A stretch of DNA of 21,877 bases, taken from Promethearchaeota archaeon. GTDB lineage: Archaea > Asgardarchaeota > Lokiarchaeia > Sigyniarchaeales > SOKP01. The translations under genes were made by a program, and so were the position numbers. The stretch's first letter is position 1; each line of letters starts with the position of its first letter. A model generated the notes under the pieces. The model worked only from the letters and a program-made list of their open reading frames with translations. It was not told where the DNA came from and did no database searches. This document shows, piece after piece, positions 2,812 to 20,055 of this stretch. The stretch lies in NCBI GenBank assembly GCA_048941015.1, contig JBHLNZ010000051.1, positions 1-21,877 of the forward strand, in the 5' to 3' direction.

Positions 2812-3834
2812 ATGGAATCATTTGAACGTATATATGCTGCTTTGAAGGGTAAACCAGTAGATCGACCTCCAGTTTTTCCCCAGATTGGTGATCATGCGGG
2901 GATTATAAATAAATTAACATATAATAAAATGTATGAGGATGCTAAATTAGCTGCAAATGCTCATTTAAAAGCATTAGATCTATACAAATACGATATCACA
3001 TCAATACAAGTAGAACCAAGTTGGCCAGTTGCCGAAGCTTGTGGAGCGGAAGTGAATTATCCTTTTGATAAAAATCCTTGGATTACAAAATATTTGATAG
3101 AATCACAAATTGATTTGGAAAACTTGGAAGTACCAGACTTCATGAAAACAAAAAGTTCAAGAGTTATGATAGAAGGCACATCGATTCTTGCTAATGAAGC
3201 GGAAGTCCCTATTGCAGCTTTCATGACAGGGCCAATAACTTTTAGTTTTCAATTAATGCCATATGAACTATTAATAAAAAGAATGGTAAAAGACCCCGAA
3301 TTTACACATGCTTTGGTTAAAAAGAGCGTTATGATAATAAAGGAGTATATTGAAGCTCTGAAAGATGCTGGGGCAACTGTGCTTGTAATTTGTGAACATG
3401 ATTTTCAAATGTTAAAACCAAAACTGATCAAAGAGTATAGTTTAGATTATTTACCAGATCTTTTTGAGATATACCAGTATAATATCCTTCATATGTGTGG
3501 AAAAGTATCATCACATTTGAAAGAATTAGCTGATAATATTAGAAATATTAAAAAATTAAATACTTTGAATATTGGTCCATTTGTTGATATCAAAAATACT
3601 CAAGATCTCTTCAAACACAAGATTGGAATAGCAGGTAATATAGATCATATAAGATTACTTCCATGTGGTAGCCCTAATGAAATAGAGACCGCTGTACATA
3701 AAGCTATAGAATCTAGTGGTGGAGACTCACGCTTTATGGTCGCTCCCGGATGTGAAATTACATCTGACACACCAATTCAAAATGTAAAAGCATTTGTAAA
3801 TGCTACACAAACTTATAACAAAAATATAAAATAA
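2812..3834 (+). CDS. MtaA/CmuA-family methylcobalamin:thiol methyltransferase (URO-D fold)
   Basis: GKPVDRPPVFP start, AEACGAEV, GPIT, intact zinc motif ILH227-M-C229-G ... APGC314E, GNID..L..GSP.EI and TPIQNVKAFV. Confidence 0.85.
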   Translation: MESFERIYAALKGKPVDRPPVFPQIGDHAGIINKLTYNKMYEDAKLAANAHLKALDLYKYDITSIQVEPSWPVAEACGAEVNYPFDKNPWITKYLIESQIDLENLEVPDFMKTKSSRVMIEGTSILANEAEVPIAAFMTGPITFSFQLMPYELLIKRMVKDPEFTHALVKKSVMIIKEYIEALKDAGATVLVICEHDFQMLKPKLIKEYSLDYLPDLFEIYQYNILHMCGKVSSHLKELADNIRNIKKLNTLNIGPFVDIKNTQDLFKHKIGIAGNIDHIRLLPCGSPNEIETAVHKAIESSGGDSRFMVAPGCEITSDTPIQNVKAFVNATQTYNKNIK

Positions 3835-3898
3835 AAATATATATAAAATATTTAAGGTCATTTGAAACAATTAATTTACCCTCTAAGTTCAGAGAAAA

Positions 3899-4357
3899 GT
3901 GATAAATATGGAAGTTAACCTATTATTGGATTTAATTGAATTTTTTATTATTAATCTTTTTAATTTATCTGTATTCGCTCTCTTTTTATCTCGTGTTAGA
4001 AAACCAGAATTATCAAAAAAAATTGGTATTTTTTCAATAGTCCTTGGAATTCCCTCCTTAATGGTTGCAATTATTAATGCTTACCTTCAAAGAGAGTGGT
4101 GGTATTGGATTTTTCCTCTCTTATTTGTAGAATTTCTTCTATTTACTTTAGTAGTAGATTATATTATTAAAATTGAGTTTAGGAATCCTAGAAAGTTATC
4201 TATCTTGGTTCCCTTTTTAATCTTATTTTATGTGAGTATAATTTTAATGTGGGGTTTGACTTGGGCATTAGGCGTGATTTATGGAGTTATCACGCTTATT
4301 ACTTATTTTTTACAATTAATTGGTGCTTATTATGCCGGAAAACATGGTGTAGGTTAA
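3899..4357 (+). CDS. Hypothetical integral membrane protein (~5 TM); start may be ATG 3908
   Basis: Five hydrophobic segments. GTGA upstream of ATG 3908 looks like an RBS, and a T-tract follows near 4392. Confidence 0.75.
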   Translation: MINMEVNLLLDLIEFFIINLFNLSVFALFLSRVRKPELSKKIGIFSIVLGIPSLMVAIINAYLQREWWYWIFPLLFVEFLLFTLVVDYIIKIEFRNPRKLSILVPFLILFYVSIILMWGLTWALGVIYGVITLITYFLQLIGAYYAGKHGVG

Positions 4358-4422
4358 TTATTATTCAAACTAAGAAAGGTTTATTAGAATATTTTTTTTC
4401 TTTGTCTTTCTTATTTAATTAC

Positions 4423-4950
4423 TTATTTTCGATTATAGACATAAATTCCATTATCTATATCTTCATTGACAATTCTTAATTTATGAAAGATAAATGAATT
4501 TGATATAATACGTGCCGTTGGTTTCAGTTCTTTAATTAGTTTCTCTTCTAGTTTATCATTAGTTGTTTGTAGTAAATAACAAACCACTATATCAGCATCG
4601 CTTAAATCATGTTTAAAAAGATTCCCATAAACAATCTTAACTCTACTTCTCAAATGAAGTATCGTTATTAAAAATTGACAACAGAGGTAAAGCAAAAGAT
4701 TAATTTCAATACCGACAGCTTTTGCACCATATTTGCGTGCCGCTATAATAGTAAAACGTCCATCCCCACATCCTAAATCGTAGACGATTTCACCAGGTTG
4801 GATTTCAGCTAGAGTAAGCATTTTCCGTACTTTTTTCATTCGAGTTGGAAACCAAGGGGCTCCCTTTATAAGAGACCAAGAAAGAAAAAATCCAACTATA
4901 ACACCAGTTATAATAATGCCAAGAGCTATAATACGAGCAATCGTAATCAT
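4423..4950 (-). CDS. Membrane-anchored class I SAM-dependent methyltransferase, FAM173/aKMT-like (probable protein lysine methyltransferase)
   Basis: N-terminal TM, then GAPWFPT, VYDLGCGDGR (motif I), AVGIEIN, ADIVVCYL and RIISNSF. Confidence 0.85.
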   Translation of the reverse strand: MITIARIIALGIIITGVIVGFFLSWSLIKGAPWFPTRMKKVRKMLTLAEIQPGEIVYDLGCGDGRFTIIAARKYGAKAVGIEINLLLYLCCQFLITILHLRSRVKIVYGNLFKHDLSDADIVVCYLLQTTNDKLEEKLIKELKPTARIISNSFIFHKLRIVNEDIDNGIYVYNRK

Positions 4951-5012
4951 TTTTGAGACCAGTATAGTGAAATTATGAACATAATAATTTGAATCTTATT
5001 TTTATCACAAGA

Positions 5013-6005
5013 TCACTTTTGTTCTTTTTTATTACGGGAAGAATCACGATTTACTAGTACAATTCCTAAAATCACTAATAATAAGGCAAAAGGATAAATA
5101 AAAAAATCGAATTCTTCATGTAAAAATATAGCTGAGAGCAAAACCCCAAATAATGGCACAAGTGTCTGAAAAATTGCGGCTCTACTAGCATTTAATCGTT
5201 TCACTCCTTCTAAATAAAAGGTATATGCGAGTATTGAAGATAAAAATGCTAAATATGCAATACCTACCCATAAACGAGCCGGAATGCTAAAATATTCTAA
5301 TGGATTTAGATATTGTGGACTAATAATTAATGAAATAGGTATAATAGTTAGAAAACCAAAAAAGGATACCCATGTAATTATCCATAAAGATGATGGTTGA
5401 AAAGAATCACTCCTATTTTGAGTTATATTTAAGAAATGTCGAGAAGTTACTGTATATACGGCGTAAGCAAATGCAGCAGCTAATATTAAGATATCTCCAA
5501 GAATTCGGTTCAAGACATCTACATTTGGAGAAAATCCTACAACAATAACAACGGCCATGAATGCCATCAGAGTTCCAACAACTTTTTTCCAGGTAAAAAA
5601 TTCCGTTTTTAAGAATGTACTAGAAATTACTACAACCCATATAGCATTTGTAGCAACCATTATACTAGCATCACTTGCAGCAGTAAAAATCTCACCGATA
5701 AGATAACCAGCTTGATAAATTGTCACAGAAGTTAACCCCATAAATGTTAAAATTTTCCAATTTTCTTTTGCAAATTGCCAGTTTAATGTTCCTTCTTTAA
5801 ATCTGAGAATTATAAAAAAAGAAATAACTGCTAAAAAATAACGGATAAAAGCAATCATAAATGGTGGTATGGTTGCTCCTCCAACTTCCTCAGAGACTAA
5901 CCAGCGTCCTATTGGCCATGTTCCACCCCAAATAATAGCTGTTAATATTAATAATATATAAGCAATAATTTCCTGTTTCCTTTTGCCATTAATTATTGAA
6001 TTCAT
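5013..6005 (-). CDS. DMT superfamily EamA-type transporter
   Basis: IIWGGTW, AFIRY, LGDILILAAAFAYAVYTV and ASRAAIFQTLVPLFGVLLSAIFLHE; ~10 TM in two EamA repeats. Confidence 0.92.
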   Translation of the reverse strand: MNSIINGKRKQEIIAYILLILTAIIWGGTWPIGRWLVSEEVGGATIPPFMIAFIRYFLAVISFFIILRFKEGTLNWQFAKENWKILTFMGLTSVTIYQAGYLIGEIFTAASDASIMVATNAIWVVVISSTFLKTEFFTWKKVVGTLMAFMAVVIVVGFSPNVDVLNRILGDILILAAAFAYAVYTVTSRHFLNITQNRSDSFQPSSLWIITWVSFFGFLTIIPISLIISPQYLNPLEYFSIPARLWVGIAYLAFLSSILAYTFYLEGVKRLNASRAAIFQTLVPLFGVLLSAIFLHEEFDFFIYPFALLLVILGIVLVNRDSSRNKKEQK

Positions 6006-6150
6006 AGCATATTACGAAATAATTTTCTAATTATGACTCTATTTAATCTAATAAAGATAATAAATATATTAAATATAAGAAAGGATATTAATTCAAATAT
6101 TAAAAAATATACATATCTTAAATAAAAATTTTAAAGAGAGAGATTAAATA

Positions 6151-6894
6151 ATGTCTGGTAGAATTAAAGAAGATTATTATATTAAAAAGAAGGATAAATT
6201 TATGCGTTCCTTTGAGGAACGCTTAACCCATATCCGGAAATTTATTAAAATGAAATTTCCTTCTGAGAATGAAGATGATATGGTAAATCAAATGAAAGAG
6301 GAATATAATATGATACTTCCTGAAATTCCTTATTTAGGAGGGCAAAAAAATCCTCTTACTCAAATTCTCGTTAAATGCATGTCTGATTTAGCTATTTTTA
6401 GTACTTTAGAGAAAAGAGGATTATCATTTCAGGAAATTGGAGAATTCCATTACAATTACGTTATTGAAATACATAAAACTAGAAAGCAAGTTTTAGAAAA
6501 AATGGGGAGAGATCCATCAAGTTATCCATTTGAAACTGAATACGTTAATTACCAAAAGAAATTAACTGAAGATACTCGAAAGAGATTATATCCAGAGAAT
6601 TGGGTTATGGATTTTGTAGAAGGTGATGGTAAATCATTTGAATGGGGCTGGGATGTACATGAATGTGCAATACAGAAAGCTTATAAAAAATTGGGGGCTG
6701 AAAAATATCTCCCTTTGATATGCTTAGGAGATTTTTATGAAGCTGAGGGTTTAGGTTTCGGATTTAAGCGTACAGAAACACTCGGATTTGGTGGTCAAAT
6801 ATGCACACATAGATTTGTGAAAAATTACAAGACTCCTAAAGCATGGCCTCCCTATGATTTAAAAGAATTTAATGCTGTTTTTTGGGGAAAATAG
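6151..6894 (+). CDS. L-2-amino-thiazoline-4-carboxylic acid hydrolase family (ATC_hydrolase/V4R-like) protein
   Basis: PEIPYLGG, W..DF..GDG..F.W..D..ECAI.K........LP.ICLGDF and F.RTETLG.GG..CTHRF three-Cys pattern. Confidence 0.8.
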   Translation: MSGRIKEDYYIKKKDKFMRSFEERLTHIRKFIKMKFPSENEDDMVNQMKEEYNMILPEIPYLGGQKNPLTQILVKCMSDLAIFSTLEKRGLSFQEIGEFHYNYVIEIHKTRKQVLEKMGRDPSSYPFETEYVNYQKKLTEDTRKRLYPENWVMDFVEGDGKSFEWGWDVHECAIQKAYKKLGAEKYLPLICLGDFYEAEGLGFGFKRTETLGFGGQICTHRFVKNYKTPKAWPPYDLKEFNAVFWGK

Positions 6895-7011
6895 CTAAAA
6901 TTGATTTTTGAAGAAAAAAGACTGATTTAATATTAAAAAAATGTGAAACTGTTAATGATTAATTATTAAATTATTAGAATTGCTAGAATCCTAATGTTTT
7001 CACCTTTACCA

Positions 7012-7452
7012 TTAAGTTTTTCCAAACATTTCTTTGGCTGAGAGTATCAGTCCAATCAAGGTTAATAAAGCTCCAACAACAAACGTAATCATACTAGCTC
7101 CAATATAGCCAATTATAATTTTATATACTATGAATGTTCCCCATGTTACACCACCTGCTATTAAAATTGCAAACCAAGCCCATTTTTCCCCCGGAGCATA
7201 TGCTTTTTTCTGAATGAGAAGTATCAAAATAGCAATTACTAATATCATTACTCCTATTAACTTTTTTGTTAATATATAAAACCCCTCTAAGACAGCATCG
7301 GGATGCTCGCCAAACTGATAGCCTGTTACGTGTGCAAAGTCACTTACAAACATAATTTCAGTAACGAAGATCCAAAGTATCGACATTACTAAGGTATAAA
7401 ATCCTAAAAAAAGGATTAACCAAGATCCAATTTCATGATTTGATTTCTTCAT
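7012..7452 (-). CDS. Hypothetical membrane protein (4 TM)
   Basis: Four hydrophobic helices with a GEKWAW loop motif. Confidence 0.75.
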   Translation of the reverse strand: MKKSNHEIGSWLILFLGFYTLVMSILWIFVTEIMFVSDFAHVTGYQFGEHPDAVLEGFYILTKKLIGVMILVIAILILLIQKKAYAPGEKWAWFAILIAGGVTWGTFIVYKIIIGYIGASMITFVVGALLTLIGLILSAKEMFGKT

Positions 7453-7658
7453 ATATTTTATACACTCATATAATATTTTTTATCAATTTTTGATAGATTT
7501 CTATATTAGACATTGTCTAGAAGTATTATTTAAGTATTAACTTTTTTTATTAAACCTTAATTGAATAATCAATAAAATTTATTAATTGACATGGATAATT
7601 TTGCAAATAGTTGCATTATCCAACAAACATAATAAAATAAGAAATAAGTGGAAAGTTT

Positions 7659-9059
7659 ATGACGAAAAAATGGGTTAAAATTGTCATTTTAGCGGTTATA
7701 ATTAGTTCTCCGATAATCGGAATATCATCATTCTTATATATAAGTCAAAAACATTTTGAGGATTCTTACCAAATAAGTGGAGAAGGAATAATTGCTTCTC
7801 AAATTATTATCAATAATCAAATTAAAGTTGGAGATCTCCAATTTCAATTATTAAATTCGAATTCAGAAAATATTTTAGAAGCAGAATGGAAGGTTGACTA
7901 TAATGGAATTTATGATAAGAAGAAGTTTGTTATAATAGATTATATACAAGAAGGTTCTGATTTAAAAATTAATATATACAGTGATATTCATATAGGGACG
8001 GGAAATTACAAGCAAATCAATATTATACTCGATATTTATATAAATCCTGCTTATATTAATTATAGTTTTATTAGTGATAATGAATTTGCTAATCTCGAAT
8101 TCAAAACTTATGGTATAAATTTCGAGAATTTTGAAATAAGGAGTCAAAGTGGGAATGTGGATGTTCAATTAAATAGAAGTTCGATAGATAATGACTTTAA
8201 AATTACAACAACATCTGGAGATATAGATTTGATGTTGGATTTTATTAATTTCACTAATAATTTTATATCTAGTTCAGATTCAGGTGACCAATACTTTGAT
8301 TTTTGGAATATTAAATTTGGTTCCTTAGCTAATTTCAATGCAACATCTTTAACGGGAGTAGTAAATGTACGTTGGGCTAATCATTTCAATAAGTCTCACA
8401 ACGTAAATATTTTCTTGAAATCTGATAATTATGCTTTTTTGAAAATGTGGTCTCCAATTGAAATTATACGGTATGATTTATCATTAGATGCTACAACAGG
8501 AACGACTGATTTTGATACCTCTACGGGCCTTTTTATTGAATTAGAAACCAATCATTATCAATCTTATAATATTAATACAACAGGTGTAGATATGTGCAAT
8601 ATTACAGCAATCACTACTTCTGGCTTAGCTTATGTATTTATAGTAGATTGTTTTAAATGGCAACGTTTATGCGCATGGGGCGGGGACTTTGTACCATATG
8701 ATGTCAATACAATTGGAAATTATACAATTCATAATGAGAGTAGTGTAAACAGTATTGAATTATACAATTTAAAATATATTTACTTAAACACCACTACAAA
8801 TATAACATTAAATTTTGAAACACTTCCTATCAGTAGCGAAAATCTAGTTTATGTAGATTGGGATCTAACCTATACACATGCTATGGGAATAGGTGTCGGT
8901 TCGATTAATTTAATAGTATCAAATACAACACAAGTGGGGGTCTTAAAAGTTTGTATCGAGCTCGATTTCGAACTTGATCGAATATTACCAACATTCACTG
9001 ATTATAATGTTACAGTATTTTATCATCCAAGCTACACTTTTTATAACTATACTGTTTGA
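7659..9059 (+). CDS. Membrane-anchored surface glycoprotein with DUF4097/adhesin-like beta-solenoid repeats
   Basis: N-terminal TM anchor, repeats IRSQSGNVDV, ITTTSGDIDL, SSSDSGDQYF, ATSLTGVVNV and AITTSGLAYV, and more than ten N-x-S/T sequons. Confidence 0.7.
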   Translation: MTKKWVKIVILAVIISSPIIGISSFLYISQKHFEDSYQISGEGIIASQIIINNQIKVGDLQFQLLNSNSENILEAEWKVDYNGIYDKKKFVIIDYIQEGSDLKINIYSDIHIGTGNYKQINIILDIYINPAYINYSFISDNEFANLEFKTYGINFENFEIRSQSGNVDVQLNRSSIDNDFKITTTSGDIDLMLDFINFTNNFISSSDSGDQYFDFWNIKFGSLANFNATSLTGVVNVRWANHFNKSHNVNIFLKSDNYAFLKMWSPIEIIRYDLSLDATTGTTDFDTSTGLFIELETNHYQSYNINTTGVDMCNITAITTSGLAYVFIVDCFKWQRLCAWGGDFVPYDVNTIGNYTIHNESSVNSIELYNLKYIYLNTTTNITLNFETLPISSENLVYVDWDLTYTHAMGIGVGSINLIVSNTTQVGVLKVCIELDFELDRILPTFTDYNVTVFYHPSYTFYNYTV

Positions 9060-9126
9060 TATCTTTTTTATCTCTAATGTTTTTCCTCGCTTGATTAATT
9101 AAGAAAAAGTACTTTTTATGTAGTAA

Positions 9127-9777
9127 TTAAAATAATGGTAATAATTTTCCACATTTAAAACATTTTATATCATTTCTTTTTACCCTTTCTCCACAGTAAA
9201 TGCAATTAATAAATTGCATTTGTCTTTCATTCAATTTGGGAGAGTTATAAAATTCATTTAAGTACCATAGCTCGTAAATTGTATCCTTTAACCAATCTAT
9301 ATATTCCTTCCAAAATGAAGAATTTTCTGGTTTTACGTATAAGTATCCTTTCTTATCAAATTTCATATATTTTTTTGGGTTATATTCCATCTTCCTTAAC
9401 TTTTTGTAAAGATTTACGTAATATACAATCAAAATTCCACCAAATATACTTATTATAATTAGAATTTCATTTATATTATTATAAATATTTGAAATCACGA
9501 AAATAAGAAAAATAATAAAGATTATTCTTTTTAAAATTGATTTAAATAAATTTGATTTGAATCTTTTCCATGCTTGAAATTCTAACATGCATCTCATGCA
9601 TACTGGAACAGATAAATTATGTATTCTATACTTATATTTAGATTCTCTATTTATTACACTCTTTTTATTTAATAGGCTTTCTAATGTTAGGGGAATTGTA
9701 TTATGGACATAACCACATTTAATGCATTTTAAAACCTTAAAAGCCCAAACTAAATCATTATTATCTTCAAGAGACAT
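9127..9777 (-). CDS. Zinc-finger membrane protein (CxxC...CxxC, 2 TM, C-terminal zinc ribbon)
   Basis: CIKCG and CMRC, two TM helices, then C-terminal CIYCG-x9-CFKCG. Confidence 0.75.
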   Translation of the reverse strand: MSLEDNNDLVWAFKVLKCIKCGYVHNTIPLTLESLLNKKSVINRESKYKYRIHNLSVPVCMRCMLEFQAWKRFKSNLFKSILKRIIFIIFLIFVISNIYNNINEILIIISIFGGILIVYYVNLYKKLRKMEYNPKKYMKFDKKGYLYVKPENSSFWKEYIDWLKDTIYELWYLNEFYNSPKLNERQMQFINCIYCGERVKRNDIKCFKCGKLLPLF

Positions 9778-10001
9778 TCATAAACTAATTTATAATTTTT
9801 ATTTCTAAAATAATCATTACCTAAGTAAACTTTTAACTTTTATTAAACAATGAATATCATAAATATGAAATATATGGGAGATATTTCTTCAGATTTTATT
9901 AAACAAAACTTATATTAAAACAAATCAATAGATTTACAATAATTTATTAAATATTGAGCCTAATCTACCATATTATATCATTTAAAAAAAATGGGATTTG
10001 A

Positions 10002-10388
10002 ATGATTTTTGATATACTTAGCGAACTTGACACTTTTGAAGAAATTTTTTGGTTTATTATTTTTTACTTAATTTTTCTGTTAATAATGACGATTTTCTTA
10101 AAAATTGCGATAAGTTTTTTTAGTAGTGCAAGAAATACTGAATTTGGCAAGGTTTTTTTAACATCTTTTATGATTACTATCGTATATTTAATTGTCTTCT
10201 TATTTATCCAAAATTGGGTTGCATGGCTTATCGTTATAATTGTTGCTTGGATCATCATCAGTGCCATGCATAAAATTGGATTTCTTGGAGCAATCCTTGC
10301 CACAATAATTGCGTTCATACTTTATGTAGTTGTAGCATTGATAATTGGGGCTATTCTTGGTATAACTTTAATTGTATTACCTTTTTAA
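10002..10388 (+). CDS. Hypothetical small membrane protein (~4 TM)
   Basis: Almost entirely hydrophobic helices; sits cleanly between neighbouring genes. Confidence 0.75.
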   Translation: MIFDILSELDTFEEIFWFIIFYLIFLLIMTIFLKIAISFFSSARNTEFGKVFLTSFMITIVYLIVFLFIQNWVAWLIVIIVAWIIISAMHKIGFLGAILATIIAFILYVVVALIIGAILGITLIVLPF

Positions 10389-10399
10389 ATACACTTTTT

Positions 10400-10975
10400 T
10401 TACTTCTTATATCCAATAGGAATAATATAAAGCGGATCTATATTTTCTGAAAGATTTAATTCCTTCTTTACTCGTTTATCCTTAAATGCTCCTATTGGAA
10501 CAGATGCCAAACCTAAAGCAACTGCTTCCAAATGTACATTTTGGGCACAATGTCCAACCTCCATATACACATATCTAACTCCACGCTCACCATATCTTTG
10601 AGTAGTTCTTGAATAATCTGCACAAATAATTATATTTATATAGGCTTCACATATAAAATTCTGATTCCAAGACGCATTTGCTAGCTTTTCGCAATAAACA
10701 TCCTTAGATATTAATTCTAAATTATGTTCATTTAAATTATAATGAAAGAGCCCCTTATCTTTGACCAATACATATATTTCTAACGGATATGTAGCACCAG
10801 CAGAAGGTACGGTTCTTTTATTTCCTTTTTTTCCTTGAGTAGCCCACAAAATCTGTGAGATTTTTTCAATTTCAATTTCGCTTTTCTGGAAACTTCTTAT
10901 GCTTTCTCGTTCATATATACATTCTTCAAGGCTTTTATTCCCTTTTGTAAGGGGATTTGGTAATGTAATTTCCAA
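10400..10975 (-). CDS. SagB/ThcOx-family nitroreductase-like flavoprotein
   Basis: SLEECIYERESIRSF, ILWATQG, RTVPSAGATYPLEIY, RYGERGVRY..MEVGH.AQNV.L.A.ALGL...PIGAF. Confidence 0.92.
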   Translation of the reverse strand: MEITLPNPLTKGNKSLEECIYERESIRSFQKSEIEIEKISQILWATQGKKGNKRTVPSAGATYPLEIYVLVKDKGLFHYNLNEHNLELISKDVYCEKLANASWNQNFICEAYINIIICADYSRTTQRYGERGVRYVYMEVGHCAQNVHLEAVALGLASVPIGAFKDKRVKKELNLSENIDPLYIIPIGYKK

Positions 10976-11076
10976 TTAATTATCACTTTTTATTTATTAT
11001 CTAATTTCTGATTTCATAGTTTATTATTTTCTAGATAATAAGTATTTTTATTTGAATTCAAAAAAATATTCTTCCA

Positions 11077-11430
11077 ATGTCTGATTTGAAAGATTTATTT
11101 CAAAAATGGAATGATTTGAATACTAAAGCACAAGCATCGTTTGGAAATTTTGATTTTTCCAAAATTAAAGAAATTAGAGCCAAGCAAAAAAAAATTGAAG
11201 ATTCTATATATGAAATTCTTAAAGAGAATGCATCAGATCAAATAGGAAGTATATTACCTGACGATTGCGGTCAGATGGAAGTGGGTTATGATACAGAAGA
11301 AAACGTCTTTTACTTTGTAATGTTTGATCCCGAATTTGAAGAAGAAGATGAAGCAAAATTAATTGCCATAACTTTGGATATTAATAAAAACGTCTCTATT
11401 AAGAAGGATTTTAAAATTGAAGATTCTTAA
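11077..11430 (+). CDS. Hypothetical acidic protein
   Basis: 117-aa ORF filling the intergenic space, with natural composition (helical N-half, beta-rich acidic C-half). No family recognised. Confidence 0.7.
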   Translation: MSDLKDLFQKWNDLNTKAQASFGNFDFSKIKEIRAKQKKIEDSIYEILKENASDQIGSILPDDCGQMEVGYDTEENVFYFVMFDPEFEEEDEAKLIAITLDINKNVSIKKDFKIEDS

Positions 11431-11467
11431 ATCATGAAAAATAAAAAAAGAAATAAAAAAAATTTTT

Positions 11468-13000
11468 TTAAAATTTATCTGAATCTTCGTACCATTCGGG
11501 GAACCATTGATAATATTCTTTTGGAAAGGCTTTTTGCAAACCTTTGTAAGTTGCCTTCACTAAAACAATTTTATTTTGGCGATCTCGATGTGCTACGATT
11601 AGTTTTTTCTCGATTAGGGATTCAAAAATTTTTCTAATTTCAGATCTACTTCCCCCGATATCTTCTCTTACATCATCTGGGGTCATATATAGTCCAGGAT
11701 TTACTTTATAATCATGACTAATAACTTTAAGAATATTTTCTTCATTAACGTCTAATCCGTTAAATTTTGAATCTTTCTTTGATATTATTGGTGCATTAAC
11801 ATCATCATTCCATCTTAATCTTATAGCTTTATTATACTGGGGTAACATTGCACTAAATCGATAAATAATCATTTTCTGTACTTCATTAGTGCCTGCAACT
11901 ATTTCCCCAATTTTAGCTTCGCGTAAAATGCGTTCTACTGGAAGAAATTTTGTAAGTCCATCTCCACCAAGTACTTGGATTGCTTTTAAACCTACATCTC
12001 TTACGTATTCAGTATTAATCATTTTAGAAATTGAAGCTTCAATCATTGGTTCTTTTCCATCATCTAACATTTTTGCACAATAATATGAGAATAGCCTAGC
12101 AATTTTTGCTTTTGAAATAATATCTGCAATTTCGTTCTGAATTCCAGGAAATTGATTTGTTGTTCTATTAAATTGTACTCTCCTTTTCGTAAAAAAGAAT
12201 AATAATGAAACTAAATCTTCAAAAAGACCACTAAATACAGCAGCGCCAATTAATCTTTCGAAATTTAAACCTGCCATCATTACATTCCAACCTTTACCCA
12301 CTGCGCCGATACGATTTTCATCAGGTATTCTTACATTATTAAAGTCTAAATATCCGTTAGGCACATTATCAAACCCTATAAGTGCATTAACTTTTTCCAA
12401 TGAAAATCCTGGTCTTCCTTTTTCAACAATAAAAGATGTTAAATGGCCATATTGTTTACGGTCTCCTGGTTCTTCGCTAGTTTTAGCATAAATAAAATAA
12501 CGGTCTGACACACCTGCCCCTGTGATAAAGCGTTTTTTTCCATTGATAATCCATTCGTCTCCATCTTTTTCTGCTGTTGTAAATATATTTGCTGCATCAG
12601 ACCCTGCAAATGGTTCTGTTATGCACAATGCTCCTAACTCTTCACCACTAGCAATTTTTGGAAGCCAGTTTTGTTTTTGTTCTTCATCAGCAAATCGTAA
12701 TATTTGTTCTAACCCTGCCAGCATACTTACTGTAAATACATGACCAACAGCATAAAGGCGACCTAACTGTTCAGCAACGATACAACTACCTGTTGCCCCT
12801 AATTCCAAACCCCCGTACTCTTTTGGGACACCTGCTCCAAAATAGCCTTTTTCAGCTACCTTTTTAACTAAAGGCCAAGGAAATTTAGTATTCCAAAAAT
12901 ATTTTTCAGCTTCTTCATAATAATCATCAACAAATTGTCTAACATCATTATAAGCTTCGATCTGTCTTTCATTCCACCAAAAAAATGATTCACTCATCAC
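11468..13000 (-). CDS. Acyl-CoA dehydrogenase with C-terminal winged-helix-like extension
   Basis: VPKEYGG, GALCITEPFAGSD, WIINGKKRFIT, LNFERL, RRVQFN, IQVLGGDG and ERILREAKIGEIVAGTNE, followed by ~125 extra residues. Confidence 0.93.
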   Translation of the reverse strand: MMSESFFWWNERQIEAYNDVRQFVDDYYEEAEKYFWNTKFPWPLVKKVAEKGYFGAGVPKEYGGLELGATGSCIVAEQLGRLYAVGHVFTVSMLAGLEQILRFADEEQKQNWLPKIASGEELGALCITEPFAGSDAANIFTTAEKDGDEWIINGKKRFITGAGVSDRYFIYAKTSEEPGDRKQYGHLTSFIVEKGRPGFSLEKVNALIGFDNVPNGYLDFNNVRIPDENRIGAVGKGWNVMMAGLNFERLIGAAVFSGLFEDLVSLLFFFTKRRVQFNRTTNQFPGIQNEIADIISKAKIARLFSYYCAKMLDDGKEPMIEASISKMINTEYVRDVGLKAIQVLGGDGLTKFLPVERILREAKIGEIVAGTNEVQKMIIYRFSAMLPQYNKAIRLRWNDDVNAPIISKKDSKFNGLDVNEENILKVISHDYKVNPGLYMTPDDVREDIGGSRSEIRKIFESLIEKKLIVAHRDRQNKIVLVKATYKGLQKAFPKEYYQWFPEWYEDSDKF

Positions 13001-18075: not shown

Positions 18076-18663
18076 ATGTCAAAAAAATTCTGTCCAAAAT
18101 GTAATACAATGGTTTTAACGAAAAGAGACGATATTGATGTATGTCTATTAATCATTTTAGGTATTTTTACTGGAGGCATTGGTGCATTAATTTATCTTTT
18201 GATTTATTTAAATCATGATCCAGATAGATGTATAAAATGTAACTCAATTTGTACTTATTATCCTTATAATACTTCGAATAAGCCAGGTATAGAAATGAGT
18301 GAAACTATGCATAATCAAGCTGGAAAAAAAAGATACAGCGAGGAGGTTTCAAAATTAAAAAAGGGATTTATCAATTTTTGTCCGAATTGTGGAAATAAAA
18401 TAATAAATTCAAAGTATGAAAATCCAAATTATTGTCCATTCTGCGGAGAAAAACTGATAGAAAAATACCAGAAATCAAGAACTAGAATACAATGTACAAT
18501 ATGCCATATTCATATTAATAATAATGATGAAACTATACAATGCTCATATTGTGGAAGTAAATATCATTATTCTTGTGTGGCGGAATGGCTATCAAAATAT
18601 AATTCCTGTCCAATGTGTCAAAACCAATTTTTAGTCCCAAAAATTCGTGTTTTGAATAAGTAA
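18076..18663 (+). CDS. LITAF-like zinc/membrane domain + zinc ribbon + C4HC3 RING-variant domain; putative E3 ubiquitin ligase
   Basis: C6xxC9-hydrophobic-C52xxC55; C102PNC105..C120PFC123; C140xxC143-x12-C156xxC159-x4-H164xxC167-x3-W171-x6-C178PxC181. Confidence 0.8.
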   Translation: MSKKFCPKCNTMVLTKRDDIDVCLLIILGIFTGGIGALIYLLIYLNHDPDRCIKCNSICTYYPYNTSNKPGIEMSETMHNQAGKKRYSEEVSKLKKGFINFCPNCGNKIINSKYENPNYCPFCGEKLIEKYQKSRTRIQCTICHIHINNNDETIQCSYCGSKYHYSCVAEWLSKYNSCPMCQNQFLVPKIRVLNK

Positions 18664-18747: not shown

Positions 18748-20055
18748 ATGAATCTAAAAACATTATATGATAAAGCAAAAAGAAACAAGAAGAGAATAGC
18801 AAAATCAATTATTATAATTATTTTTACAATCGTAATAAGTCCAATAGCATATTTAGGAGCATGGATTGTATACATGGACCTAAGACCTGCTCCAAATTAT
18901 GTTTATGACCCTATGTTACAATTAACTCATTGGACGGTTGTTGATACTGGAGGCAATCCCGCTAAAAATCATAATTCGAATACCGATTTGATATATTTTA
19001 ATAATTCTTTTTACTTGGTCTTTCAACAATCCAAATGGCATATACAAGACACTAATGGAGTTTTAGTGATTCAAAAATCTCCTGATGCTACGCCAGGAAG
19101 TTGGGAAGAAATTCATAGAATTACTCTTCCTAATACAGATGTTAGAGATCCAAAATTTGCTAATATCAGTGATAGATTATTTGTTTACTTCTTACCTAAT
19201 TATCGATTCGATCCTGCCCCAAATACTACTTTTTATTTGTATAGTGATGATGGTCTCACATTTACTTCTCCTCAAGAATTACAGGTAAACGTAACATACA
19301 CATATGATAATGGAACTATAGAAAATGTCAAAACTGCCGGATGGAATCTTTGGCGACCAAAAACTTATAATAATGCAGACTGGTATGTATTAGCTAGTGG
19401 AAGAAAATATAAGCAAGATCCGGGAAGTGTTGGAGATGCTGATGTAACCGGTACTATGACAATCCTATTAGAAACTCAAGATGGACTTAATTGGACAGAA
19501 GTATCAGAAGTTTATACTACTCATGGGAATGGAGAAGCTTGTCTAGAATTCTTAACTAGTGGAAAAGTCATTACAACTCATCGTGTAGGTTCAATGGGTC
19601 TTCCTGGTTATGCTTTCGGAAATCCTCATGGAGCAACAGTAATCGGAACTTCCTATAATAATCTTCAAAATTGGTCGTTCGCAGTTGAATTTCAAACGAG
19701 ACTAGATGGAGCAACTCTCTTTAAATTGGATGGACGTATATTTGCTGTAGGGAGAAATCATCTTGGTCCACGTCCTGACATGGGAAATCACTTTGCTGTA
19801 AAAAGAACAGCATTTTATGAAGTAAAATCAGATCGATTAATACATTTATTTGATCTACCAAGTAATGGAGATACGGCATACACAGGTGTGGCAATAAAGG
19901 ATGGTTGGGTTTATGCTAGTTATTATACCAATCCTATAAATAAAAATTATGCATGGTTTGTCGGGCAAATCTTTTTAACTAAATCAAATATCAGAATGGT
20001 GAAAGTTAATGCTACAGGATTACTTACATTTGCTGATATGAAAGGAGGTGGATAA
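18748..20055 (+). CDS. Membrane-anchored beta-propeller (sialidase/Asp-box-like) putative glycoside hydrolase
   Basis: Basic N-terminus + TM, HNSNTDL, DVRDPKF, Asp-boxes YSDDGLTF and TQDGLNW, and LPSNGDTAYTG. Confidence 0.75.
   Translation: MNLKTLYDKAKRNKKRIAKSIIIIIFTIVISPIAYLGAWIVYMDLRPAPNYVYDPMLQLTHWTVVDTGGNPAKNHNSNTDLIYFNNSFYLVFQQSKWHIQDTNGVLVIQKSPDATPGSWEEIHRITLPNTDVRDPKFANISDRLFVYFLPNYRFDPAPNTTFYLYSDDGLTFTSPQELQVNVTYTYDNGTIENVKTAGWNLWRPKTYNNADWYVLASGRKYKQDPGSVGDADVTGTMTILLETQDGLNWTEVSEVYTTHGNGEACLEFLTSGKVITTHRVGSMGLPGYAFGNPHGATVIGTSYNNLQNWSFAVEFQTRLDGATLFKLDGRIFAVGRNHLGPRPDMGNHFAVKRTAFYEVKSDRLIHLFDLPSNGDTAYTGVAIKDGWVYASYYTNPINKNYAWFVGQIFLTKSNIRMVKVNATGLLTFADMKGGG

Follow-up and report, generated by a model that had tools for sequence, protein, structure and literature searches.

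A candidate membrane-anchored RING-type ubiquitin ligase with a LITAF-like zinc ribbon in a Promethearchaeota archaeon

Can one short archaeal polypeptide combine a membrane anchor with a ubiquitin ligase module? The question is raised by an open reading frame (ORF) of 195 amino acids (aa) in the genome of a Promethearchaeota archaeon from the order Sigyniarchaeales. It occupies positions 18076 to 18663 (plus strand, stop codon included) of contig JBHLNZ010000051.1 (GenBank assembly GCA_048941015.1). Positions 1 to 21,877 of this contig are referred to as the window, which is contig C124 of a 3.59-Mb assembly with a completeness of 95%. An earlier note on this DNA had described three zinc modules in the translation, likened the first to the LITAF membrane domain and the last to a C4HC3 RING finger, and proposed a membrane-localised ubiquitin ligase. 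The analysis presented here makes it fairly probable that the gene product is a monotopic membrane-anchored E3 ligase of the RING type acting with ubiquitin or a ubiquitin-like modifier, a reading built on sequence comparison and structure prediction.

In the mechanism that we favour, the first 60 residues would form a LITAF-like ribbon in which C6/C9 and C52/C55 bind one zinc ion, and these two knuckles would clamp the ends of a hydrophobic helix-turn-helix of 23 residues. The hairpin would dip into the cytoplasmic leaflet while both ends of the module stay cytoplasmic. A flexible linker of ~40 residues would then give a C4 ribbon, and a cross-brace RING at the C-terminus, access to targets close to the membrane. 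The RING would dock an E2 conjugating enzyme charged with a ubiquitin-like protein (E2~Ubl) via I142, W171 and P179 and promote transfer of the modifier onto proteins at or near the membrane, and the middle ribbon may contribute to contacts with E2, modifier or substrate. These steps, from zinc binding and the topology of the hairpin to E2 binding and ligase activity, enter the scheme as predictions, and so do the E2 and the modifier that belong to this ligase, and its substrates. A ligase function is plausible for a RING of this lineage because cascades of an E1 activating enzyme, E2 and RING protein from Caldiarchaeum (PMC5654768) and from Asgard archaea (bioRxiv 10.1101/2023.07.25.550441) are active in vitro.

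Three zinc modules and the RING finger

The ORF list and the translation give a gene that starts with ATG, with many stops on the opposite strand of the same interval. The three zinc modules and their spacing were borne out by the translation. The N-terminal knuckles CPKC (residues 6-9) and CIKC (52-55) lie around a hydrophobic stretch (23-45) with the central sequence T32-G-G-I-G36, the middle ribbon has the knuckles CPNC (102-105) and CPFC (120-123), and the C-terminal finger reads C140-x2-C143-x12-C156-x2-C159-x4-H164-x2-C167-x3-W171-x6-C178-P-x-C181. A search of 5.8 billion proteins retrieved eight full-length relatives with 48-91% identity, the nearest of which (91%) carries the database name 'RING finger domain-containing protein [Candidatus Thorarchaeota archaeon]', and an exhaustive search added one further full-length relative (P0033) with 39-40% identity. 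Independent assemblies, and four genomes at species level, show the three-module architecture. Across ten full-length homologues (39-91% identity), every Cys and His of the three modules is invariant, and so are W171 and P179, the Trp and CP positions to which the earlier note had pointed. Because the homologues keep all these residues and both the RING and the ribbon pass Pfam, the three-module pattern is not a product of chance.

The middle module (residues 100-128, 18373..18459, plus strand like all features of this gene) is a C4 zinc ribbon with the invariant cysteines C102, C105, C120 and C123. It matches Pfam DZR (PF12773) with 29.3 bits at a cut-off of 27.3, with residues 100-128 as the best stretch. 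It is preceded by a probably disordered linker (residues 61-99, 18256..18372), which has a predicted local distance difference test score (pLDDT) of 50-63 and no secondary structure in the full-length AlphaFold2 (AF2) model and whose alignment is gappy and variable among relatives. In a scan of the 195-aa protein against NCBIfam, no match came near any cut-off.

The RING finger comprises residues 139-182 (18490..18621) and matches Pfam zf-RING_2 (PF13639) over exactly these residues with 32.7 bits against a cut-off of 27.3, and with 36.2 bits in a scan of the whole genome. Prok-RING_1 (PF14446) stays below its cut-off (23.0 against 29.1 bits) and covers residues 137-168 only; in the alignment used for AF2 it is matched at E<=0.01 by 26 of the 86 sequences scanned. 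When the family profile was compared with all sequences of the PDB, the active RING-H2 ligases Arkadia, EL5, RLIM, RNF165, ZNRF3, RNF13 and RNF126 came first, with E values of 1e-7 to 2e-5. The AF2 model, computed from the 86-sequence alignment, reaches a pLDDT of 90-95 at residues 140-182. Its best structural match is the RING of RNF165 from the UbcH5b~Ub complex (Z 7.8, root-mean-square deviation (rmsd) 1.7 Å over 49 residues, for the predicted model), and all 50 top matches found with Foldseek and VIA-align are RING or U-box domains. The finger had been called a C4HC3 RING resembling that of NSE1. Of this claim the RING and the C4HC3 spacing stand, but an NSE1 type was rejected: the spacing fits NSE1 unspecifically, and human NSE1 (2ct0) reaches an E value of 0.021 in the PDB profile search, against 1e-7 for Arkadia and EL5.

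A quite different function is suggested by a name in the databases, where the JGI calls one member of the protein's cluster an RNA-binding Zn-ribbon protein involved in translation (DUF1610). Weak zinc-ribbon matches to ribosomal and RNA-polymerase ribbons would likewise fit a nucleic-acid- or ribosome-binding protein, but they lie below the cut-offs and reflect generic CxxC ribbons only. The C4HC3 spacing would also suit a reader of the PHD type. As a candidate for this finger, however, the PHD was set aside: Pfam PHD (PF00628) gives 16.7 bits for the 195-aa protein and thus stays well below its cut-off of 24, while the RING exceeds its own, and in the Foldseek list the PHD ranked highest stands at place 38 with an rmsd of 9.9 Å. 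Pygopus PHD has an E value of 0.0024 in the PDB profile search and aligns with part of the domain only, and no PHD is among the best 50 matches of VIA-align, an absence from the list that does not exclude the fold. We consider a nucleic-acid-binding or PHD-type protein highly improbable. By predicted model and sequence, the C-terminal domain is a RING-H2-type cross-brace finger rather than a PHD or a specifically NSE1-like one, so that the refuting outcome named in the earlier note, a PHD or non-cross-brace model, was not observed.

The finger departs from canonical RING-H2 domains in its ligands, which have the order C4HC3 instead of C3H2C3. In the printed alignments with EL5, Arkadia and RNF165, Cys159 takes the position of ligand 3, and Ser161 stands where these proteins have the His of ligand 4. 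An invariant Cys, Cys156, is found three residues upstream of Cys159. We therefore describe the domain as a finger on a RING-H2 scaffold whose ligand set is C4HC3, a pattern that is usual among prokaryotic RINGs according to a review (PMC11354881). The eight ligands C140, C143, C156, C159, H164, C167, C178 and C181 are kept without exception by 10 full-length and 13 short forms (the latter consist of ribbon and RING and are introduced below). Site 1 would be formed by C140, C143, H164 and C167, and site 2 by C156, C159, C178 and C181.

Candidates for contact with an E2 are I142 behind the first Cys, W171 in the helix and P179 ahead of the last Cys; in the same 10 full-length and 13 short forms, the Ile is nearly invariant and the Trp and Pro do not vary. 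By RING consensus position only, the counterparts of I142 and W171 in the small RING finger protein (srfp) of Caldiarchaeum are I30 and W58, and there the mutations I30Q and W58A impaired ubiquitylation (PMC5654768). Asn183 is invariant in both full-length and short forms.

Several features weigh against an active ligase. At the linchpin position, immediately behind the last zinc ligand, the 10 full-length forms have an invariant Gln182 in place of Arg or Lys (the short forms mostly have Gln, a few Leu or Lys), and in the Caldiarchaeum enzyme the linchpin mutant R69A was impaired (PMC5654768). The fourth zinc ligand is rearranged, and the role of Cys156 as a substitute for the RING-H2 His is proposed from its invariance. 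Furthermore, no gene for a Ubl, an E1 or an E2 adjoins the fused gene, so that an operon link to this machinery is lacking, and the genome holds several other RING proteins which could be the active partners. These points would suit a membrane-anchored RING-like adaptor devoid of ligase activity, whose RING and ribbon would do no more than bind proteins, for instance to hold an E2, a Ubl or some other partner at the membrane or to pair with an active RING. Against such an adaptor, the usual E2-contact positions I142, W171 and P179 are strongly conserved, the nearest relatives in sequence and structure are all active monomeric RING-H2 ligases, and Gln could still form a hydrogen bond. We regard the adaptor as fairly unlikely and retain the anchored ligase as the preferred reading.

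The LITAF-like module and its mode of membrane attachment

The N-terminal module (residues 1-60, 18076..18255) starts with knuckle 1 (C6/C9), continues with a beta-hairpin and a hydrophobic helical hairpin, and ends with knuckle 2 (C52/C55). According to DSSP, two AF2 runs agree in a beta-hairpin at residues 3-16, a helix at 22-31, a turn at G33-G34 and a second helix at 35-46, followed by short strands. In the full-length model the module reaches a pLDDT of 93-98, the domain-only model repeats the secondary structure, and the helix-turn-helix is predicted with a pLDDT above 90. The two helices constitute the presumed membrane anchor (residues 22-46, 18139..18213), with a hydropathy peak of 2.4-2.5 across residues 22-43. 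The knuckles had been described as separated by ~23 hydrophobic residues; the stretch is present, but the interval also contains a beta-hairpin of ~13 residues and a linker of ~6.

Among 70 relatives that all carry the module (alignment A3), all four knuckle cysteines as well as T32, G34 and G36 are nearly invariant, and the length of the hydrophobic segment is fixed at 22-24 residues. The Pfam model for LITAF-like domains (PF10601, cut-off 23.8 bits) is matched at E<=5e-5 by 7 of these 70 sequences, and at E<=0.01 by 33 of the 86 sequences scanned in a second alignment (A2), not all of which carry the module. One relative, P0020, exceeds the cut-off with 26.8 bits. A profile-profile comparison by hhalign, in which the 70 N-module sequences were set against a profile (A6) of six archaeal ORFs, each of which passes PF10601 (best E 1.4e-8), gave a probability of 98.5% and an E value of 3e-15 over 68 columns. 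The match spans both knuckles, a conserved Arg, the T-x-G-h-G turn and a Y-L motif. Since the partners in this comparison were archaeal ORFs and not eukaryotic LITAF, the link to the latter runs via the Pfam model only. We conclude from these comparisons that the module is best placed as a divergent branch of the LITAF-like zinc-ribbon superfamily. The earlier assignment as LITAF-like is thus upheld at the level of the superfamily, but the protein has no PF10601 match of its own.

LITAF itself is a monotopic membrane protein with a zinc-clamped anchor (PMC5142333). By analogy, and as predicted by the models, the hairpin of the present protein would fit such an anchor; both its topology and the bound zinc are inferred here. 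Three points count against this assignment. Neither the 195-aa protein nor its residues 1-75 matched PF10601, even at E<=10; profile-profile scores such as that of hhalign can be inflated by hydrophobic segments; and a hydrophobic stretch of 23 residues could cross the membrane once. The protein might then be an ordinary single-pass (bitopic) membrane protein, with the first CxxC outside the cell and a likeness to LITAF that is convergent. The segment length of 22-24 residues is enough for one transmembrane helix, and no solved structure matches the module: the best Z is 2.2 across 48,161 chains representing the PDB. Yet the near-invariance of the four cysteines and of the T-G-G-I-G turn in the 70 relatives argues against a bitopic protein, as do the two short helices with a turn in both AF2 runs, where the knuckles form one confident unit, and the extent of the hhalign match to PF10601-passing ORFs, which covers both knuckles and the hairpin. 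Moreover, Lys and Arg occur on both flanks of the hairpin in these relatives (3.1 versus 2.4 on average). A bitopic arrangement therefore appears improbable to us, and the monotopic, zinc-clamped hairpin is kept as the favoured form of the anchor.

Further comparisons of the N-terminal domain were less informative. The N-module family, compared with PDB sequences, retrieved generic ribbons only and no LITAF entry. Nothing significant was found in BFVD, where a model of an iridovirus LITAF protein stands at rank 7 with an E value of 2. Language-model look-alikes of residues 1-66 are mostly unnamed small proteins of bacteria and phages, with a cluster named 'putative LITAF domain' at rank 12, which is a lead only. 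In the class of the host, LITAF-like domains are common: 96 of its 161 genomes have a match to PF10601 above the cut-off, as against none of 14 control genomes. Most of these matches are orthologous stand-alone ORFs with open frames of ~75-115 aa. In the genome under study, such a stand-alone LITAF-like ORF of 80 aa (PF10601, 27.3 bits) is located on contig C58 (L013, 1444-1686, minus strand).

Origin of the fusion and genomic setting

The host had been taken for a probable Asgard archaeon, which agrees with the distribution of the family: among 185,579 species genomes, all 80 related loci (80/80) belong to Promethearchaeota (Asgard), with labels given by the submitters that vary between Thor-, Hod-, Hermod-, Odin- and Promethearchaeia. 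The exhaustive search divided the related proteins into three populations, namely a handful of three-module proteins, many N-only proteins of ~115-140 aa that consist of LITAF-like module and ribbon, and many C-only proteins of ~95-110 aa that consist of ribbon and RING. The middle C4 ribbon is common to the N-only and the short ribbon+RING relatives. A survey of the architecture, as the earlier note had suggested, found the three-module form in 4 of 161 genomes of the class, all within one of 30 genera, and beyond these in two further loci only among all species genomes.

At least 27 loci have the short ribbon+RING gene immediately downstream of the alpha/beta-hydrolase gene that also occurs in the window, and in most of them a phosphoglycerate-mutase-type gene stands further upstream, again as in the window. 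In these loci there is no room for an N-terminal extension. Because of the shared upstream genes and the missing room, the short gene is regarded as the positional orthologue of the fused gene; their products are 44-56% identical across residues 94-195. The synteny with the two upstream genes served as a marker of orthology and not as evidence of a shared function. A likely donor type for the N-terminal part is represented in the same genome by the first of two tandem N-only paralogues of 125 and 123 aa (contig C36, L106, 334-711 and 1179-1550, minus strand), which have no RING; the first is 44% identical to residues 1-128 of the fused protein. The simplest history would be that a conserved small ribbon+RING gene acquired a membrane module from an N-only paralogue. 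In a quick, weakly resolved tree of the ribbon+RING part (101 columns), all 12 fused forms grouped together with one short form (Shimodaira-Hasegawa-like approximate likelihood ratio test, 97), which is compatible with a single origin. As judged from its occurrence in the sequenced genomes, the fusion is recent and confined to few species of one genus.

Some related observations concern the surroundings of the fused gene and its relatives. The spacer between the hydrolase gene and the fused RING gene measures only 178 base pairs in the window. At two other species-level fused loci, an extra ORF of 132-134 aa is located between these genes (L021, 1740-2138; L022, 5276-5680). Proteins of ~680 aa with a closely related C-terminal RING are widespread in Promethearchaeota. 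The copy of the present genome is an open frame of 686 aa (contig C15, L107, 1471-3156, minus strand) with a RING that is 64% identical to that of the fused protein and a long helix-rich region which appears by eye as coiled-coil.

A membrane-bound ligase would require partners, and the expectation that the genome encodes ubiquitin, E1, E2 and the endosomal sorting machinery ESCRT proved correct, with genes for Ubl, E1, E2, JAB protease and ESCRT-III. A ubiquitin-like operon is located on contig C29 (L101, G000:C29:14000-27000, 5296-11780). It encodes two free Ubls with Ala-Gly ends (of 129 aa and of 111 aa, where four more residues follow the Ala-Gly of the latter), a predicted regulator of 223 aa between the Ubls, a membrane protein of 264 aa with a C-terminal Ubl domain, an E1 (410 aa), an E2 (175 aa) and a JAB protease (277 aa). 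The operon is followed by a gene for a polytopic membrane protein of 377 aa with a C-terminal RING-like Cys/His motif and no Pfam match. Membrane-linked tagging in Asgard archaea thus does not hinge on the fused gene. In addition, the genome contains a ubiquitin of 83 aa that ends in GG (contig C126), further ThiF-type E1 genes, one of which adjoins an E2-like gene, and two Snf7/ESCRT-III genes. Its two canonical E2s, both with the HPN...Cys active-site motif, are the one of the operon and one of 169 aa on contig C90.

Among the other RING proteins of the genome is one of 193 aa with an N-terminal RING (zf-RING_2, 30.6 bits) and a helical tail (contig C118, L102, 2916-3497, minus strand). Its gene is arranged head-to-head with that of a 522-aa protein carrying a small-GTPase-like region (3600-5168, plus strand). 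A protein of 176 aa (contig C101, L103, 2785-3315, plus strand) has a C-terminal RING-like finger that remains below the Pfam RING cut-off with 22.7 bits and shows His at the sixth ligand position (C-x2-C-x12-C-x2-C-x4-H-x2-H).

In the window, the neighbours of the fused gene encode a histidine phosphatase (phosphoglycerate-mutase type), an alpha/beta hydrolase, a protein of 435 aa and PhzF. A functional link to these neighbours was considered and rejected, as they are metabolic or belong to no Pfam family. The 435-aa protein (18748-20055, plus strand), encoded directly downstream, belongs to no Pfam family and begins with a hydrophobic segment near its N-terminus; L021 has it beside the fused gene as well (89% identity), whereas it is absent at that position in L022.

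Significance and comparison with known systems

Our literature search, outside which lay supplementary tables and subscription journals, found no paper that names LITAF alongside Asgard, Lokiarchaeota or Heimdallarchaeota, nor one treating a LITAF domain in archaea. RING ligases of Asgard archaea are already known; new are the anchor and its combination with a RING. The fused gene provides a small and tractable candidate for a membrane-tethered archaeal RING ligase and points to LITAF-like membrane zinc ribbons as a family present in Asgard genomes of the Loki type. Its weight is limited by the occurrence of the fusion in few species, by the known in vitro activity of Asgard RING ligases and by the presence of other candidate membrane RINGs in the genome.

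As a one-polypeptide version of the eukaryotic link between LITAF and E3 ligases, the protein offers an apt analogy for its possible mode of working, but no more than 4 of the 161 genomes in the class have the fusion, which came about when a paralogous module was joined to a conserved small RING gene. For this reason it says little on the ancestry of the eukaryotic LITAF pathway, and its narrow, recent distribution argues against direct ancestry to the LITAF-NEDD4-ESCRT pathway. A bolder idea, which we hold to be quite unlikely, is that the LITAF-like hairpin ribbons of the 96 Asgard genomes represent the prokaryotic stock of the eukaryotic LITAF/CDIP1 domain and that the fusion shows anchored ligase activity before eukaryotes. 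If this were true, monotopic anchors would have brought ubiquitin-ligase activity to membranes, in cells bearing ESCRT-III, before eukaryotes arose.

Among characterised systems, the srfp of Caldiarchaeum subterraneum (PMC5654768) and a RING E3 of Helarchaeia (bioRxiv 10.1101/2023.07.25.550441) are likewise short archaeal proteins with a RING-H2-like cross-brace finger. They share with the fused protein the Ile and Trp by consensus position and a host with E1, E2, Ubl and JAB genes. In contrast to these systems, the fused gene lies outside the ubiquitin operon, its product has a zinc ribbon and, at the N-terminus, a putative membrane module, the linchpin is Gln instead of Arg or Lys, the ligands are C4HC3, and the ligase role is predicted from sequence.

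The eukaryotic RING-H2 ligases RNF165/Ark2C, Arkadia, EL5, RLIM and RNF13 are the best matches in sequence (E 1e-7 to 1e-5) as well as in fold (Z 6-7.8, rmsd 1.7-2.7 Å). Both sides have the motif C-x-I-C ... H-x2-C-x3-W ... C-P-x-C, and RNF13 is membrane-anchored, as is predicted for the Asgard protein. The Asgard protein differs from these ligases in Ser161 at the ligand-4 His, Cys156 three residues before ligand 3 and the Gln linchpin, and its predicted anchor is a zinc-clamped hairpin and not a transmembrane helix. In ZNRF1 and ZNRF2, a zinc finger directly precedes the RING, as in the present protein. ZNRF1 (5ywr_B) was aligned across ribbon and RING (query 96-173, E 6.5e-5; Z 5.5), where the similarity of the zinc ribbons is weak and may be generic. 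ZNRF1 and ZNRF2 are attached to the membrane by N-myristoylation, whereas the anchor predicted for the Asgard protein is a protein hairpin.

With eukaryotic LITAF/SIMPLE and CDIP1 (PF10601), the Asgard module has in common two CxxC knuckles, a hydrophobic segment of ~23 residues and beta-strands on both sides. In LITAF, the domain is C-terminal and follows a proline-rich region by which E3 ligases with WW domains, as separate proteins, and ESCRT-I are recruited. The Asgard domain, in contrast, is N-terminal and has a putative E3 module in the same chain; PPxY and P(S/T)AP motifs are absent from the 195-aa protein. Its second knuckle also lacks H-x-C-P-x-C...G-R, which we take to be the signature in the Pfam description of LITAF. 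Further counterparts are the short zinc-ribbon+RING proteins of Promethearchaeota (~95-110 aa). As positional orthologues without residues 1-95 and without a membrane module, these soluble proteins (~105 aa) are the natural comparison for the fused protein.

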